A DNA stretch of 19,819 nucleotides from UHGV virus genome UHGV-0254309. One strand, given 5' to 3'. Below the pieces are notes generated by a model that had not been told where the DNA came from, made no database searches, and was given only the letters and a program-made list of their open reading frames with translations. Origin of the DNA: a virus. A program made the translations under genes and the position numbers. This document shows positions 4,011 to 17,012 of the stretch, one piece after another. Position 1 is the stretch's first letter, and every line of letters starts with the position of its first letter.

Positions 4011-4215
4011 TCATTTTCACTTTCTTAAATCTAACGACAGACGGCTAACATTTAAGTATTGTGAAATATTATCAAATGTAATCATCATTGATTTACAAAA
4101 GATACATTTTGCCCCGAAAGGATTCCTGTCAGAAACATCAAAAGATGATGTTCTATACTGAGAACCATGGCAACACGGGCATCTAAAGTGAATATGGTTT
4201 GTAATATTTTCTACC

Positions 4216-4431
4216 TCAAAGTGCCACAACATGAACAGCCGCGGGGCCTTTAGGTCCGTTCTCAATACCAAATTCGACTTCCTGATTCTCAGTTAACGTT
4301 TTGAAATCGTTGCTCTGAATAGCTGAGAAATGGACAAACACATCTTTGCTACCATCTTTCGGCGTGATGAAACCAAAACCTTTTTCAGGGTTAAACCATT
4401 TCACTAAACCAGTCATTTTGTTAGACATCAT
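4216..4431 (-). CDS. cspI: Cold-shock protein, CspA family (CspI-like)
   Basis: 70-71 aa, [38 protein letters not shown]..., with RNP1/RNP2 motifs of the cold-shock domain. Two tandem ATGs at the start. Confidence 0.85.
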
Positions 4432-4791
4432 TATTACCTTTTGAAGAAGTTAGCCCTTGGGCAGAATGGTCCGAAAAAAAATATCAGAGAGAAAAACCAA
4501 CAAGGAAATCTCAAGAGGTACAAATAATAAAATTATAACAATGACTGCTTCAGATAATTTTGTAACAAACCAGAACACCATTAACGCATGATTAACCAAC
4601 CATAGCAAGGATTACTTTTGTAAAGAAAAACACACGAATGAAACAATAGCTTTATTTATTAATAAAACGTGTCATTCTGTCTAATGACCTTTTATCTTAC
4701 CCTTAAGATTTCAAGGATTTTGACTCATGGAAGAGTCCTTTTTATTTAAATTTCACATTCAGCGCTAAAAATAATCCGATTTAATATTAAT

Positions 4792-7385: not shown

Positions 7386-7664
7386 TATTGTGGTGCTTTT
7401 TGTGGGAGTCATCCACTTACGCACTTTGTTTTGCTATGCCAGCAGTTAGCTTCTGCTGTAAAACTATTCATGCAGCAAACCTGCACTTCACCACAATGGT
7501 TAGCATACTTTTCCTGATTAAGTTATTGCCAAATATGCTGGCCATTGTTTCATGTATTGGACCTCCTTACTATTTATTAAAGAGATCCAATATTCACCAC
7601 TCTGTCTGTATCTCCACTCAGGCATCAGCCTTCTTCGTTATCGTATACAGACAAACTATGAATT

Positions 7665-7880
7665 TTAATCAGTAATTATGACATTTGCTGCTGCAGGACC
7701 TTTAGCACCACTCTCTACAGAGAAGGTAACCTTTTGACCTTCAAATAAGGTTCGAAAATTATCATTCTGAATCGCAGAAAAATGCACAAACACATCTTTA
7801 CTACCATCAACAGGAGAAATAAAGCCAAAACCTTTATCAGCGTTAAACCATTTTACTAAACCAGTCATTTTATTTGACAT
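7665..7880 (-). CDS. cspB: Cold-shock protein, CspA family (CspB-like)
   Basis: 71 aa, [45 protein letters not shown]..., full cold-shock domain; long upstream leader typical of cold-shock genes. Confidence 0.85.
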
Positions 7881-8180
7881 TCTACATTCCTTAACTTGAG
7901 CCTTTCGGCATAAATGGCTTGTATAACAGAAACGACTTCGTACTTAATTGGAGAGACTCAAAGAAGGAATAAGTGAATAACACCTGAAATGAGAACTGCT
8001 TTAGTAAACTACTTCGTATATCGTCTGTTCTTCAAACCGACGCAATCATTAACGCATAGTTGAACATATGAAGCAATGTTTATTTTAGACATCCAGCCAT
8101 CTTCAACCCCATCAAAAAACTATAGCTTTCTTCAGGAAGGTGTGTATAGTGCGCCCAGTTATCAGTATTAAGGAATTTTT

Positions 8181-8393
8181 TTGTCCCGTAAAATGACAGG
8201 AATTGTCAAAACCTTTGACGGCAAAAGCGGCAAGGGTCTTATCACCCCATCCGATGGTCGTATCGATGTCCAGCTTCATGTTTCAGCGCTCAATCTCCGC
8301 GATGCAGAAGAAATTGCCACCGGATTACGCGTGGAATTTTGCCGGATAAATGGTCTGCGTGGCCCTTCAGCTGCCAATGTTTACCTTTCATGA
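8181..8393 (+). CDS. cspF: Cold-shock-domain protein of the CspF/CspH type
   Basis: 70 aa, [44 protein letters not shown]... First codon is TTG with AAGGAA 5 nt upstream; alternative ATG at 8193. Confidence 0.8.
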
Positions 8394-8685
8394 GCTATAT
8401 TAAAGCTTTAATTTCAGGCCCCATCGAATCAAACATGGAGAGTTTTCATGAATAACCCCGTCTGTCTTGATGACTGGTTGATTGGCTTTAAAAGCTTATG
8501 CTGTACTTTGACCGTAATAGCTCTGCTAATAATGTAATAAGCAGACTCATTGTATCTAGGGACATTGTACTGGAAGAAAACATTTTAAACATCAGGCAGA
8601 AAACAAAGTCACCCGATAAATAATAAGTAAACAAACATGAATCCCGAAATGAGATTCAACATCTCTATTACCCTATTTAAAGCAC

Positions 8686-8719
8686 AAAAACCCGCTCATC
8701 AGCGGGTTTTCTACTTTTT
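8686..8719. terminator. Bidirectional rho-independent terminator; tR'-like for the Q-controlled late promoter and terminator for cspF
   Basis: Stem CCCGCT / AGCGGG with 4-nt loop, A-run upstream and T-run downstream, so it reads as a terminator on both strands. Confidence 0.55.
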
Positions 8720-8755
8720 CTTAACGTCGGGTATACAAAGCCCATTGTTGAAAAA

Positions 8756-8784
8756 ATTTTATCCATATTTTTTGAAAAATGCAA
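8756..8784 (-). promoter_or_regulatory. Late promoter (PR'-like) just downstream of Q
   Basis: Minus strand reads TTGCAT, 17-bp spacer, TAAAAT, about 30 nt downstream of the Q stop and about 40-60 nt upstream of the terminator at 8686-8719. Confidence 0.5.
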
Positions 8785-8815
8785 GCATTACGTCGCCATC
8801 TTCGGCGAAAATCAT

Positions 8816-13248: not shown

Positions 13249-14055
13249 TCACCCCCTGAATCCTGCCGGGATCTGGCTGTAGTCCACGTTGTCGTAACTG
13301 GCTTTGAAGTACGGGTCCTCACGTCTGGCTGCAGATACCGCAGGAACTTCCCAGGATTCTTCGAAATGACGATCCGGGCCAAAGAACGTGACAGCCTGTT
13401 TCACAAATTGTGTGCCGCTGTTACCCATCGCAGATACCCAGCCCGCGTAGCGTTTCACACCTTCCAGCATGGTTTCGGGGTTTACCCCCTCATTCAAACG
13501 GGCTTTCCAGGCTTTGAAGGCTGCAGATTTTGAATTGCCACCAGCACGTTTGGGATATACCAGCCATGCCTGCTCAAACTCCGGAGAGTATTCCGGTCGG
13601 TTTGAACGAACTCGCACGGACTCATCAACTGATGCACCAACAGCTATTGGTTCATTGACTGGTTCAAAAGAGTGACTGGTTCTGGGTGAATCTCCTGCAC
13701 TACCCCCTGGTGCAACTCCTGCACTACCTGGTGAATTTGCTGCACCAGATAGTGAATTATTTGCACTACCCCCTAGTGAATCTCCTGCACCATCAAGATG
13801 AAGGAGATAGATATTACTTGAGTTACCTTTTTCACCTTTCCGGGTGACTTTTTTTACCAGCCCGGACTCACAAAGGGCCGCAATATGATTCATCACAGAA
13901 CGTTTGCTAATCTCGCACTGGTCAGCAATATGCTGGTAGCTGGGCCAGCACTCACCCTGATCGCTGGCATTATCAGCCAGCTTGATCAGAACCAGTTTTC
14001 GCAATGGATTACCCACTCGAATTTTCATCGCTTTAACCATCAGCTCCATACTCAT
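13249..14055 (-). CDS. Replication initiator, lambda-O-like architecture (N-terminal wHTH, repeat-encoded linker, C-terminal domain)
   Basis: 268 aa; N-terminal winged HTH (LRKLVLIKLADNASDQGECWPSYQHIADQCEISKRSVMNHIAALCESGLV), low-complexity linker encoded by direct DNA repeats, distinct C-terminal domain. ATG overlaps upstream stop. Confidence 0.7.
   Translation of the reverse strand: MSMELMVKAMKIRVGNPLRKLVLIKLADNASDQGECWPSYQHIADQCEISKRSVMNHIAALCESGLVKKVTRKGEKGNSSNIYLLHLDGAGDSLGGSANNSLSGAANSPGSAGVAPGGSAGDSPRTSHSFEPVNEPIAVGASVDESVRVRSNRPEYSPEFEQAWLVYPKRAGGNSKSAAFKAWKARLNEGVNPETMLEGVKRYAGWVSAMGNSGTQFVKQAVTFFGPDRHFEESWEVPAVSAARREDPYFKASYDNVDYSQIPAGFRG
13685..13798. repeat. Iteron-like direct repeats inside the initiator gene (candidate phage replication origin)
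   Basis: About five 21-24 bp repeats with core (G/A)GTGAAT..CTGCAC (e.g. GGTGAATCTCCTGCACTACCCCCT, AGTGAATCTCCTGCACCATCAAG), flanked at 13800-13860 by an AT-rich stretch. Confidence 0.6.
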
Positions 14056-14276
14056 GCTGCACCTCCGAGATGCTTCATGTTTTTTCCGGAGCGAAAGGCT
14101 ATAAGCGGCATACTGACGCGGTAATTACGGCCCAGCGGTTCACAAATCACCTTCTGACATTCACGGTCAACCAGGCTAACACGTAGAACATGCCCTGCAG
14201 GTGTGGTATACCACTGACCCGGACGAGGACAACGGAAAGTCTGATTGGTAAACCGTTTGAAAATATTCCGGATCAT
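14052..14276 (-). CDS. Hypothetical small protein (74 aa)
   Basis: Tightly packed between the Rha-domain ORF and the initiator gene, with start/stop overlaps on both sides. No recognisable domain. Confidence 0.45.
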   Translation of the reverse strand: MIRNIFKRFTNQTFRCPRPGQWYTTPAGHVLRVSLVDRECQKVICEPLGRNYRVSMPLIAFRSGKNMKHLGGAA

Positions 14277-15421
14277 TTGCGCCCCCTTACCTCTGAAGGG
14301 TTCAGCGACAAATTTATGAGGCAGGCCAGCGCCGAAGCATCATTAATATAGTCATACAAGCTAACAGCCAGCGGAGATTCGGCTTTTGCCAACATAGGAT
14401 AAAGCTGCTGCAGCCAGACCTGATGAATTGATGAAATGTAGGAATAGAGAACGCTGGCGTTATGTGCAACGTCGCTCGGTACAGGGGGTTTTGAAAGCTG
14501 TTTCTCCATCTGGTTAAAGGCATTGATATATGCCTCTTTGAACTGGGCAGCACGTTTACCCGTGAAACCCATAGCAAGAAACGCAAAGCCGTCGCGGGTT
14601 ATTTGATAGCAAGGTAGTTTGCGGCCTGATGCGTCGATGTACTCACTGAGCTGAAAATTCAGCTCAGTAAATTCGGCAGAGCATTCAAGAGACGCAATTT
14701 TTTGAATGACATTTTTGTGTTGTTTGCCGAAATAACTAGCAACAGCCAGAGAAGAAGTAACAACTTTGTCTGCAATAATGCAAAGTTCAGGTTGTACTAA
14801 GGCAGGGATCGTAGCCATGATGGCAGCCTCCGTATGCAATGGATAACTTCCACCACCGGAAACGCCAATTTCGCTGGTGGTGAACTGAGCAGGGTTGGCG
14901 TAACCGGCGCATACGGAAACCGGCGCACCTTTCGGTGCCCCCACCCAGCCCACCATAATTTGGGTATAGCTGAGTTGTAGCAACAAAAAAGACGCTAACG
15001 CGCCAATTGTCGCCGTATGCAATTCCAGGACGCCAATCCCGGCACCCGCTTTATAAGGTGCCTGAACAGTGTAACGTCCCGGAATGGCAGAATCAATGTG
15101 CTGGTGGTCCTTCACACTCAACAAAATCACGCCTGAATTTCCACAAAGGACTAAAGCACTCATGCGGGTAGTCTTTGCGAAGATAGATAACGCGCTGTGT
15201 TTCTGGTTCCCAACGAATAACATGAACATAAAGCCCTCTTCCGTCACGAAACCAGCGGTTAAGTTCCTGCACAACTCGCCCCCCACAGTCAGGTAAAGTT
15301 CTCTGTGGTTACTTACAGCCAGGTGATTTGGTAATCTGCATTCATGCCGTAACAACAGGTGTTCAGAGACGCTGACCACCAGCTGTTGCGACAAACGGTT
15401 ATTTGCCGTTAAACTGTTCAT
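14273..15421 (-). CDS. Rha-family phage regulatory protein with a roughly 200 aa N-terminal extension of unknown function
   Basis: Residues about 215-300 (VTSSLAVASYFGKQHKNVIQKI...YQITRDGFAFLAMGFTGKRAAQFKEAYINAF) match the Rha domain. Long ORF starts at an ATG overlapping the upstream stop; an internal ATG at about 14818 with GGAGG upstream would give a 181 aa Rha-only product. Confidence 0.6.
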   Translation of the reverse strand: MNSLTANNRLSQQLVVSVSEHLLLRHECRLPNHLAVSNHRELYLTVGGELCRNLTAGFVTEEGFMFMLFVGNQKHSALSIFAKTTRMSALVLCGNSGVILLSVKDHQHIDSAIPGRYTVQAPYKAGAGIGVLELHTATIGALASFLLLQLSYTQIMVGWVGAPKGAPVSVCAGYANPAQFTTSEIGVSGGGSYPLHTEAAIMATIPALVQPELCIIADKVVTSSLAVASYFGKQHKNVIQKIASLECSAEFTELNFQLSEYIDASGRKLPCYQITRDGFAFLAMGFTGKRAAQFKEAYINAFNQMEKQLSKPPVPSDVAHNASVLYSYISSIHQVWLQQLYPMLAKAESPLAVSLYDYINDASALACLINLSLNPSEVRGRK

Positions 15422-15969
15422 GCGTTAGTTTCTCCACAGACACAAAACGCCACGACGCCCGGAGCTGCACACTCGCGGGCGTCACTCTTTTCTGGAGCGC
15501 AAAAGATTTTGTAGACCAGTGCTGCATGCTCCTGGAGCTTCGAAATTGACAGATACAACTCATCATTAATTGCTGTCTGCTCGTGTGGCTCCACTACCCC
15601 ATCTTCGATTGCCGAACGAATCTGTTTTGAGTAACTCCCGATCTGTTCGATGACTTCCAGCAGGCGCTGGTTTATATCGGCGTTCTCAACTTCCTCAATG
15701 TCAGGAAGCGATACAAACACCCCACCTGCAGACTGTGCGACAGCATCCGCAATGTAGTGAGTGCCAGCCGCGCGCTGTAAAATCATTGCCCATCCCAGCG
15801 GGAAAATCTGATCGCCATCTGCACGAAGGCGGTTGAATAAAGCGTTCTCTGTTACATCCAGCCACTCAGCAGCTTCAGCGTAACCCCCCGGCAACGCCGC
15901 GATAGTTTTTCTGACAGCTTTCACGTACCACTCAGGCTGTTTTTCCACTTTCCAGTGATGCTTACCCAC
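15418..15969 (-). CDS. Early regulatory protein in the cII position (function uncertain)
   Basis: 183 aa; GTG start preceded by a perfect AGGAGGT Shine-Dalgarno and overlapping the cro-like stop. Assigned by position only; no confident family match. Confidence 0.45.
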   Translation of the reverse strand: MGKHHWKVEKQPEWYVKAVRKTIAALPGGYAEAAEWLDVTENALFNRLRADGDQIFPLGWAMILQRAAGTHYIADAVAQSAGGVFVSLPDIEEVENADINQRLLEVIEQIGSYSKQIRSAIEDGVVEPHEQTAINDELYLSISKLQEHAALVYKIFCAPEKSDARECAAPGVVAFCVCGETNA

Positions 15970-16222
15970 GGCTTACCTCCTGTTCCTGTGGTTTAAACCC
16001 ATTCTGGTTTTGGCTAGATTGAAAACGTGCCGGATAAAGAATCTGCATTTCGCTGATTTCACCCTTAAAAAAATTGGCCAGACGCTCTGCAAGATCGATA
16101 GATGGAATTTGTTCCAGTCTCTCAATACGACTCAGCGTTGCTGGATTAACCTGAACGCCCGCAGCAACATGCTGCAAAGTAAACCCGTGCGCCTTACGCA
16201 CATTTCGTAATGGTGATTGCAT
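15962..16222 (-). CDS. Cro-like HTH (XRE family) regulator
   Basis: 86 aa with helix-turn-helix (HGFTLQHVAAGVQVNPATLSRIE). Divergent from the CI-like repressor across an operator-rich region; GGAGG Shine-Dalgarno. Confidence 0.75.
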   Translation of the reverse strand: MQSPLRNVRKAHGFTLQHVAAGVQVNPATLSRIERLEQIPSIDLAERLANFFKGEISEMQILYPARFQSSQNQNGFKPQEQEVSRG

Positions 16223-16319: not shown

Positions 16320-17012
16320 ATGAACATAGGAAACCGAGTCAGACAACTTCGCCAGGCGAAGAACATGAAAATCGCCGATCTCGCTGAAGCAATAGGAGTG
16401 GATGCGGCGAATATCTCGCGCCTGGAAACAGGTAAGCAGAAACAATTCACTGAACAAGCCCTGAGTAATATTGCCAGGAGCTTAGGTGTTGATATTGCTG
16501 ATCTCTTTACCTCAGACGTCAAAAGTAATACTGTATGTAAAAACAGTATTAGTGAGGATGTTGCGCAGGTGAAGGATGTATTCCGTATTGAAATGCTGGA
16601 TGTCAGTGCCAGTGCGGGAAATGGCCTTATCCAGGGCGGTGATGTCATTGATGTGATTCATGCCATTGAATACAGAACTGATAATGCTGTATCGATGTTT
16701 GGCGGACGACCAGCCAATCACATTAAAGTTATCAACGTTCGTGGGGACAGTATGTGTCCAACCATTGAGCCAGGAGATCTCATCTTCGTTGATGTCAGTA
16801 TCAATCAGTTTGATGGAGATGGTATCTATGTATTTGGTTTTGATGATAAAATTTATGTCAAACGACTGCAAATGATACCTGACAAACTACTGGTGATATC
16901 TGATAACCAGATTTACCGTGAATGGGGAATTACCAGCGAAAATGAACACCGGTTTATGGTCTTTGGAAAGGTCTTAATCAGCCAGTCACAAACCCTTAAA
17001 CGACACAATTAA
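16320..17012 (+). CDS. CI-like prophage repressor (HTH plus S24 LexA-type autopeptidase domain)
   Basis: 230 aa; N-terminal XRE HTH (RVRQLRQAKNMKIADLAEAIGVDAANISRLETGK), Ala-Gly cleavage-site candidate (SASAGNG), catalytic Ser in GDSMCPT and Lys in VKRLQ. Confidence 0.85.
   Translation: MNIGNRVRQLRQAKNMKIADLAEAIGVDAANISRLETGKQKQFTEQALSNIARSLGVDIADLFTSDVKSNTVCKNSISEDVAQVKDVFRIEMLDVSASAGNGLIQGGDVIDVIHAIEYRTDNAVSMFGGRPANHIKVINVRGDSMCPTIEPGDLIFVDVSINQFDGDGIYVFGFDDKIYVKRLQMIPDKLLVISDNQIYREWGITSENEHRFMVFGKVLISQSQTLKRHN

Follow-up and report, generated by a model that had tools for sequence, protein, structure and literature searches.

Two predicted RNA genes and a DUF4222 gene lie inside the long open frame that ends as a prophage Rha gene

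Features of the locus

The window analysed here is the whole 19,819-nt stretch of UHGV virus genome UHGV-0254309, and the element in question is an open reading frame (ORF) of 382 codons at 14273..15421 on the minus strand, listed with an ATG start at 15421-15419. The ORF ends as a Rha-family gene, with the Pfam domain Phage_pRha at aa 222-307 of the 382-aa frame (E = 1.5e-32), and we found that its first 200 codons or so cover a DUF4222 gene, a putative promoter and two predicted RNA genes. An earlier note on this DNA had described a 382-aa frame starting at an ATG that overlaps the previous stop, and reading the sequence bore this out, as the long-frame ATG and the ymfL TGA (15420-15418) share the tetranucleotide ATGA. 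The internal position that the note gave to the Rha domain also stood; the residue it named as the start, about 215, lies somewhat before the Pfam boundary.

The locus belongs to the immunity and early genes of a lambdoid E. coli prophage, and the long ORF lies in the early-right operon, with the cII-like ymfL on one side and the replication genes on the other. DNA matching ORF 14273-15421 was present in 1549 of 5426 complete E. coli genomes. For comparison, we assembled a homologue set of 120 viral contigs with the C4 core, together with annotated phages and P4. The features of the long frame are as follows, with the basis of each in brackets.

14273..15421, minus strand: long frame, eta-like, running through all cassette elements and ending as the Rha gene (ORF list)
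15273..15421, minus strand: leader segment (alignment with SfII and Klebsiella ymfM)
15093..15272, minus strand: DUF4222 gene, 59 aa, GTG start (PF13973, phrog_1343, RefSeq CDS)
15068..15096, minus strand: putative promoter P_isrK (sequence reading and conserved geometry)
14985..15061, minus strand: IsrK/seqA-type small RNA (sRNA), 77 nt, with terminator (Rfam RF01394)
14954..14956, minus strand: in-frame AUG at the 5' edge of C4 (sequence and comparison with Gifsy-1 orf45)
14873..14960, minus strand: C4/CI-type antisense RNA (Rfam RF01695)
14827..14868, minus strand: C4 target sites a2 and b2 (complementarity and covariation)
14273..14818, minus strand: Rha-family gene itself, 181 aa, placed like kil in P4 (PF09669)

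The flanking genes occur in the order cI-like repressor, cro-like gene, ymfL, long ORF, 74-aa ORF and O-like replication gene.

16320-17012, plus strand: cI-like repressor (ORF list, RefSeq)
15962-16222, minus strand: cro-like gene (ORF list, RefSeq)
15418..15969, minus strand: ymfL, a CII/CP76-type regulator (PF06892, E = 1.2e-14; RefSeq 'protein YmfL')
14052..14276, minus strand: 74-aa ORF whose ATG overlaps the Rha stop (ATGA) (ORF list; phrog_1153, E = 1e-45; RefSeq)
13249-14055: O-like replication gene, downstream of the 74-aa ORF

IsrK-type and C4-type RNAs with covarying target sites

The IsrK region (14985-15061, minus strand) matched Rfam model RF01394 at 61.2 bits (gathering score 50) and also gave a weak match to the c4-a1b1 model RF03163. 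It carries an a1 site, TTGGCGT (15036-15030), and a b1 site, GCATACGG (15020-15013), and it ends in an intrinsic terminator with a stem at 15004-14991 and a U run at 14990-14985. The C4 region (14873-14960, minus strand) matched RF01695 at 80.7 bits (gathering score 45) over model positions 1-87 of 87, and in the window it is free of stop codons in all frames. Its b' loop, UCCGUAUGC (14917-14909), is complementary both to GCATACGG in IsrK and to the b2 site GCATACGGA (14837-14829) upstream of ATG 14818, and its a' segment, ACGCCAA (14901-14895), is complementary to TTGGCGT both in IsrK (a1) and at a2 (14868-14862). Furthermore, b2 overlaps the Shine-Dalgarno sequence GGAGG (14831-14827) of ATG 14818. 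The 262-nt leader from the predicted transcription start gave a fold with z = -5.2, and its minimum-energy fold paired the Shine-Dalgarno region with the interior of C4.

Across the homologue set, IsrK, C4 and the downstream sites co-varied three ways, giving at least 11 b-site types and at least 4 a-site types with P4 included, and b2 abutted the Shine-Dalgarno sequence in every specificity type compared. Three-way covariation of this kind is the hallmark of the P1 c4 and P4 CI systems, and by comparison it points to a functional antisense system. With its covariance-model match, its two-sided target pairs and a downstream target overlapping the ribosome-binding site (RBS), the region at 14873-14960 is a predicted member of the C4/CI RNAs; with its own covariance match, a promoter-like site and a terminator, the region at 14985-15061 is likewise a predicted IsrK RNA. 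The b- and a-site types found across loci L002-L009, L016-L034, L049, L071 and L127 (E. coli and Salmonella prophages and P4-like satellites) look like distinct immunity specificities.

The putative promoter P_isrK has a -35 hexamer TTGATT (15096-15091), a 17-nt spacer and a -10 hexamer TACACT (15073-15068), with transcription predicted to start near 15061. It is sigma-70-like, its -10 element ends 6 nt before the first IsrK base, and the TGA stop codon of the DUF4222 gene lies inside its -35 hexamer. All lineages examined have this geometry of -35, 17 nt and -10 ahead of IsrK, and in P4 it coincides with the position of PLE.

The extension is predicted not to be a protein domain

Substitutions at each codon position of the long frame were counted in alignments of the window ORF to four diverged homologues. 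In the RNA segment the counts at positions 1/2/3 were flat (24/29/31, 28/32/37, 29/34/38 and 20/23/20), whereas the Rha segment had the usual third-position excess (for example, 33/23/67). In the DUF4222 overlap, where long-frame codons begin at DUF4222 codon position 2, the counts were 3/14/3 and 6/29/8 and peaked at the wobble position of DUF4222. The leader segment compared with F1055 had 7/11/13 substitutions plus a 6-nt indel, and past its first 13 or so codons the leader lacks conservation at the protein level.

The DUF4222 gene itself matched PF13973 (E = 9.5e-14, 51.1 bits, gathering score 27) and phrog_1343 (E = 1e-36), so that both its domain score and purifying selection in its own frame assign it to that family. 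A search for relatives with the DUF4222 protein gave near-identical loci only, and diverse DUF4222 genes were gathered singly from the phage collection. From nt 149 to 329 of the long ORF, the substitution pattern indicates that the selected frame is DUF4222 and not the long frame.

The earlier note had found no recognisable domain in the extension; this was incorrect, as the Pfam family Phage_ASH (PF10554) matches aa 117-212 (window 14786-15073, minus strand) and the Rfam isrK and C4 models match the same DNA. The Phage_ASH match coincides with translated IsrK/seqA, C4/CI and downstream targets both in the window and in P4 Eta (L127 8330-8704, minus strand). Besides Phage_ASH, residues 1-200 had no Pfam match, and they had no sequence relatives in the PDB. 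The hydrophobic stretch that the note had singled out, GIGVLELHTATIGALASFLLLQL, is present as described, and it is encoded by the IsrK a1/b1 sites together with the terminator hairpin. Collectively, the substitution counts and matches indicate that the extension is not a protein domain, its amino-acid sequence being apparently unconstrained and its RNA parts and DUF4222 constrained.

Database records treat this region in several ways. The family phrog_821 covers aa 61-382 of the long ORF. RefSeq starts Rha at ATG 15163 (window 14273-15163, minus strand, 296 aa), which overlaps DUF4222 by 71 nt, and GenBank phage records name an ORF of 340-385 aa 'peptidase' or 'antirepressor Ant' (L001 3259-4149; L002, L003, L005, L006). 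In the RefSeq and GenBank phage records examined, the RNAs are unannotated and so is the internal start.

The long frame is open beyond chance

The probability that 201 codons stay open was approximately 6e-5 from base composition, in line with the suggestion of the earlier note that such a frame is unlikely by chance. In shuffles, the segment 15272-15421 was open in 5.9% and the segment 14819-15091 in 2.5% of trials, and the DUF4222 overlap would be stop-free in the long frame by chance in approximately 6% of cases, given the DUF4222 protein and local codon usage. The frame was also open in homologues 63-89% identical over the extension, namely Lys8385Vzw, phiSTEC1575-Stx2k, Stx2c_JNE082642, Stx1_14744, F1055, ST64B and Stx2_14744 (L002-L006, L216, L217). 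Under random substitution, 3.4-6.4 new stops were expected in each of four of these homologues and none was seen, with a probability of zero stops of 0.0016-0.033 each; the homologues are related and these probabilities are non-independent. Within the window lineage, the long frame was intact in 79 of 81 unique versions of the extension, and one version was frameshifted. That version, L076, has its frameshift near the DUF4222 start, the sole one among the 81, which cuts the long frame to 53 codons.

The spacing of the two RNAs follows the same frame. The distances from IsrK to C4 were 98, 101, 104, 140, 146 and 185 nt, every one of them 2 mod 3; for six length classes the probability of this by chance is approximately 0.004. 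The frame that is kept by this spacing was stop-free in 62 of 68 unique regions, and the other two frames had 0-6 stops. In addition, in the lineages of the window and F1055, L018, L031, L099, L057, L124 and the P4-like loci, an ATG in phase with the long frame sits on the stop codon of the gene upstream, although these upstream genes are unrelated. They include ymfL, a gene of the vis/alpA type, Bro/KilA-like genes (243 and 298 aa), one gene of 182 aa and one of 74 aa that resembles DUF4222. The last of these, DUF4222-like by eye (...VTFYREGYQFQCVQPIERF...), lies directly upstream in L031 and L099, where its stop overlaps the long-frame ATG and the gene is adjacent to the leader, not nested in it. 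Across these loci, the long frame appears where the cassette sits behind a translated gene.

Taken together, the missing stops and the conserved phase indicate that the long frame is kept open by selection against stops and frameshifts. Our initial reading of it as a chance artefact over RNA genes was dropped, since diverged homologues all keep the frame open. The 600 nt upstream of Rha, to which the earlier note had looked for interruption or missing constraint, proved conserved and never interrupted by stops; protein-coding constraint in the long frame was absent.

The internal start and the Rha gene

The internal ATG at 14818-14816 is preceded by GGAGG (14831-14827) with an 8-nt spacer and opens a 181-aa product, as the earlier note had proposed. 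The Rha domain occupies aa 21-106 of this form (14501-14758; PF09669, 113.9 bits, gathering score 29.9), and Rha homologues from many phages, also distant ones, aligned from query residue 1-20 of the 181-aa form. With a domain above the gathering score that is N-terminal in the 181-aa form, the gene belongs to the Rha family. A PDB sequence search with the 181-aa Rha returned nothing meaningful. Because its target sites covary and overlap the RBS, and because of the fold, ATG 14818 is probably a conserved, antisense-controlled start.

A further AUG at 14956, at the 5' edge of C4, is in frame with Rha, and a start there would give a 227-aa orf45-Rha fusion. The context ATTATGGTGGG of this AUG is conserved; a clear Shine-Dalgarno sequence before 14956 was not found on sequence inspection.

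The gene that follows a2/b2 is interchangeable among the loci: Rha, an ORF of approximately 77 aa (MTTLPTLARLNDEDL...), Kil-like, AnrP-like and an ORF of approximately 400 aa were seen (L004 2071-2334; L009; L016/L019; L021). The payloads Rha, the 77-aa ORF, Kil and the ORF of approximately 400 aa are each in phase with the long frame. An ORF of the type of the 74-aa ORF at 14052-14276 often follows whichever payload is present. Elsewhere in the prophage, two Rfam cspA thermoregulator matches (window 7602-8041, minus strand, 156.5 bits; 4170-4586, minus strand, 109.8 bits) suggest two cold-shock-protein genes with structured 5' leaders.

Proposed expression of the locus and alternative explanations

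We think that the locus is probably an antisense cassette of the P1-immI / P4-immunity type, nested like P4 eta/kil, and that it has two products, the 181-aa Rha under repression by C4 and a read-through form like that of eta. In the lysogen, the internal promoter (approximately 15068-15096) alone would be expected to fire, and most P_isrK transcripts would end at the IsrK terminator and yield the 77-nt IsrK/seqA RNA. Read-through transcripts would carry the C4/CI RNA, whose b' and a' would pair with b2 and a2; pairing at b2 would cover the Shine-Dalgarno sequence of ATG 14818, so that no 181-aa Rha would be made. The a1/b1 sites of IsrK would act as decoy copies of the C4 target sites. Upon loss of the repressor, transcripts from the early-right promoter would enter from upstream via cro and ymfL. 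The ATGA overlap suggests translational coupling of ymfL and the long frame, by which ribosomes ending ymfL would restart at the overlapping ATG 15421 and read the long frame through the DUF4222 gene (in the other frame), the promoter, the IsrK terminator, C4 and a2/b2. By homology with P4, the long frame would be translated and its translation would override termination: passage of ribosomes should block both the terminator and antisense pairing. Such passage would yield a read-through form of 382 aa with Rha at its end and would spare the downstream replication genes from polarity; for the extension, openness would matter and the amino-acid sequence would not. We are evenly divided on whether the long frame is such a translated 'ribosome track', with unconstrained residues, laid over an embedded promoter, terminator and antisense RNA and threading DUF4222, which would give a long and possibly a middle Rha isoform beside the repressed short one. 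Among the options that the earlier note had listed, dual-start expression is thus the one we favour, with ATG 14818 likened to P4 kil and the long frame to P4 eta. Its gene-fusion option may apply loosely, in that a ymfM-type leader is joined in frame to IsrK-C4-Rha; as a fusion in the stricter sense it does not.

Several points weigh against this picture. P_isrK was absent from the output of a generic promoter scan and was read by eye and from conservation. Translation of the long frame would need two frames to be read over 180 nt, through the separately selected DUF4222. The L021/Gifsy-1 group works without the long frame, which is therefore inessential to the cassette, and the kinship of the diverged homologues tempers the stop-avoidance values. 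The part that overlaps DUF4222 is also open in the ymfM-type ORFs of cassette-less phages, so its openness may be inherited and is not evidence for read-through of the RNAs.

In an alternative explanation, only the 181-aa Rha is functional, expressed from ATG 14818 under C4/IsrK control, and the long frame is the untranslated legacy of a ymfM-type ORF joined to a stop-poor RNA cassette. In its favour, the extension shows no periodicity by codon position of the long frame, selection in the overlap acts on the DUF4222 frame, C4 of the window is stop-free in every frame, the ymfM-type frame over DUF4222 is open even where the cassette is missing, and the long frame is missing in Gifsy-1 and the L021 group. 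However, a legacy of this kind does not account for changes of the IsrK-C4 spacer that are always multiples of 3 (six classes, approximately 0.004), for zero stops where 3-6 were expected per diverged homologue, or for in-frame ATGs on the stops of several unrelated upstream genes; moreover, PMC10111431 reports the homologous P4 frame as translated with a regulatory effect. We regard this explanation as unlikely, but as the main rival. Less probable still is control of the Gifsy-1 type, in which translation would start at the orf45-like AUG 14956 to give the 227-aa orf45-Rha, and IsrK would be a trans activator that opens an inactive mRNA fold. In its favour, IsrK activates orf45 of Gifsy-1, which is translated and on which AnrP translation depends, and an orf45-anrP fusion occurs in S. 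dysenteriae (PMC4825925); in addition, the context of the AUG is conserved and the window frame is unbroken from 14956 into Rha. Such control leaves unexplained the openness and phase upstream of 14956, via IsrK to ymfL, and 14956 is without a clear Shine-Dalgarno sequence, whereas ATG 14818 has GGAGG inside b2. A Gifsy-1-like start at 14956 may coexist with the nested read-through cassette that we prefer or with expression of the short gene only.

The novel N-terminal domain that the earlier note had raised would make the ORF a genuine 382-aa multidomain protein, with its first 200 residues a new folded or membrane-associated domain. In favour of this, the frame is long and its openness is conserved, and databases do list the protein (phrog_821, aa 61-382; 'peptidase' or 'Ant' in GenBank). 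Against this, the conserved elements are the overlapping DUF4222 frame and the RNA pairing, not the residues; the sole Pfam match, Phage_ASH, corresponds to two RNA genes; the PDB search gave no sequence relatives; and the hydrophobic stretch is the IsrK terminator region. The extension is without codon periodicity in the long frame, and in place of a domain it has DUF4222, a putative promoter and two Rfam RNAs. The flat substitutions and the RNA-coincident Phage_ASH match largely refute a new domain, and we consider it very improbable. Compared with it and with the other two explanations, we retain the nested antisense cassette with a repressed short Rha and a read-through form.

Significance

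These results are of value mainly as an annotation correction and as a case, open to testing, in which translation would override an immunity cassette that lies within the frame. Naming the 382-385 aa ORF 'peptidase' or 'Ant', or starting Rha at 15163, is a common error that is corrected here, and the Phage_ASH family corresponds to the translation of two RNA genes. If the eta-like reading is true, an immunity cassette with its own terminator can occupy an essential phage operon unblocked, and a prophage regulator would take one form in lysogeny and another once the prophage is induced. If the long frame is indeed a ribosome track, the P4 eta principle would extend to a cassette in approximately 29% of complete E. 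coli genomes, and both the Pfam Ash family and many ORFs wrongly named 'peptidase', 'Ant' or 'Rha' would be accounted for.

Comparison with known systems

The leader of the long frame resembles the ymfM-type ORF of e14, SfII and related phages (phrog_1170) in its ATGA on the ymfL stop, its first 13 or so codons and its overlap with DUF4222. It differs in that the conserved N-terminal VPGG...WAVGD is absent from the window and the ymfM stop is replaced by an in-frame run into IsrK-C4-Rha. The YmfM family phrog_1170 matched only aa 47-98 (E of approximately 1e-8) and the N-terminal region was unalignable beyond approximately 55 nt, which does not place the long frame in that family; because aa 47-98 overlaps DUF4222, the match probably reflects shared DNA. 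The 112-aa ymfM-type ORFs of SfII, mEp460_4F5, Klebsiella phages and Pantoea AH07 likewise overlap DUF4222, and the overlap was seen in L210 1022-1380 (SfII), L208/L209 (Klebsiella phages), L211 and L212. Between the ymfM ORFs of SfII and Kp4871, substitutions outside the overlap (14/16/28) fit the ymfM frame and those inside it (3/25/6) fit the DUF4222 frame. The filamentation assay of e14 ymfM used the whole cloned ORF, so the acting product may be of either frame.

The immI operon of P1/P7 reportedly consists of the c4 antisense RNA, icd and ant, as Citron and Schuster are said to have described in 1990. With P1 immI as it is generally described, the window shares a C4 fold with a' and b', a1/b1 upstream and a2/b2 downstream on one transcript, b2 over the RBS of the first downstream gene and a payload from the antirepressor/Rha/Bro network. 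Differences are that the window is without icd, that its a1/b1 sites lie in the terminated sRNA IsrK and that its cassette lies inside a long frame. The C4 and c4-a1b1 models (RF01695, RF03163) are those of Weinberg et al. 2010 (PMC2864571).

In Gifsy-1, orf45 starts from an AUG at the 5' edge of a C4-like RNA, is translated and is needed for expression of the downstream gene (PMC4825925); it is conserved in nucleotides and not in amino acids, and in S. dysenteriae it forms a fusion with the gene downstream (PMC4825925). Like the window, Gifsy-1 has an IsrK with promoter and terminator, then a processed RNA of approximately 80 nt (STnc1160) in the C4 position, then a regulator gene (PMC4825925). 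The orf45 AUG lies 30 nt after IsrK, and AUG 14956 of the window is its equivalent. In contrast to the window, where the frame continues into Rha, the orf45 stop overlaps the anrP AUG; moreover, the Gifsy-1 cassette follows antQ and is uncoupled from it, orf45 is directly preceded by a stop, and IsrK and C4 are spaced by 102 nt, or 0 mod 3 (L218 34076-34349, minus strand). In the Gifsy-1-like L021 group, IsrK itself contains a stop. Gifsy-1 AnrP (187 aa) had been guessed by its length to be the orthologue of the window Rha, and BLASTP gave no alignment.

The closest likeness of the nested arrangement is with the immunity region of the satellite phage P4, where eta and kil are nested and eta reads through seqA, the CI RNA and seqC. 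According to PMC10111431, which summarises Forti et al. 1999, eta has a constitutive promoter, CI and seqA inside it, Kil is a truncated Eta, and Eta translation prevents termination; in the same article, full-length Eta comes from the upstream promoter only and is coupled to the upstream gene. In our own analysis of the P4 sequence, ORF 8168-8812 spans an isrK match at 8615-8692 and a C4 match at 8420-8507, the three ATGs that form the MMM starts of this long ORF overlap the ORF88 stop, and Phage_ASH covers P4 Eta aa 37-161. The start context of kil, EAAIMAT, is the same as that of the window Rha. P4 and the window thus share the same two Rfam RNAs in the same order within one long ORF that ends as a short gene in frame, the short gene directly after the downstream target, the ATG-stop overlap, the promoter geometry and Phage_ASH over the RNAs. 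The record of ST64B already likens its 385-aa ORF to 'P4 ORF199'.

The differences from P4 concern the payload, the host and the spacing. The window payload is a 181-aa Rha in place of the 65-aa Kil, so the short gene here does not encode Kil, and P4-like loci carry MATTLTPSHPEFVF... at the payload position. The host of the window cassette is a lambdoid prophage, in which a cII-like gene and the replication genes flank the cassette. Ahead of IsrK, the leader measures 120 codons in the window and approximately 25 in P4, and the window leader holds the separate DUF4222 gene; the distance from IsrK to C4 is 101 nt in the window and 185 nt in P4. Cassettes of the P4 eta/kil, P1 c4 and Gifsy-1 IsrK kind are already known, and what is new here is the Rha payload, the site in a lambdoid early operon and the nested DUF4222.

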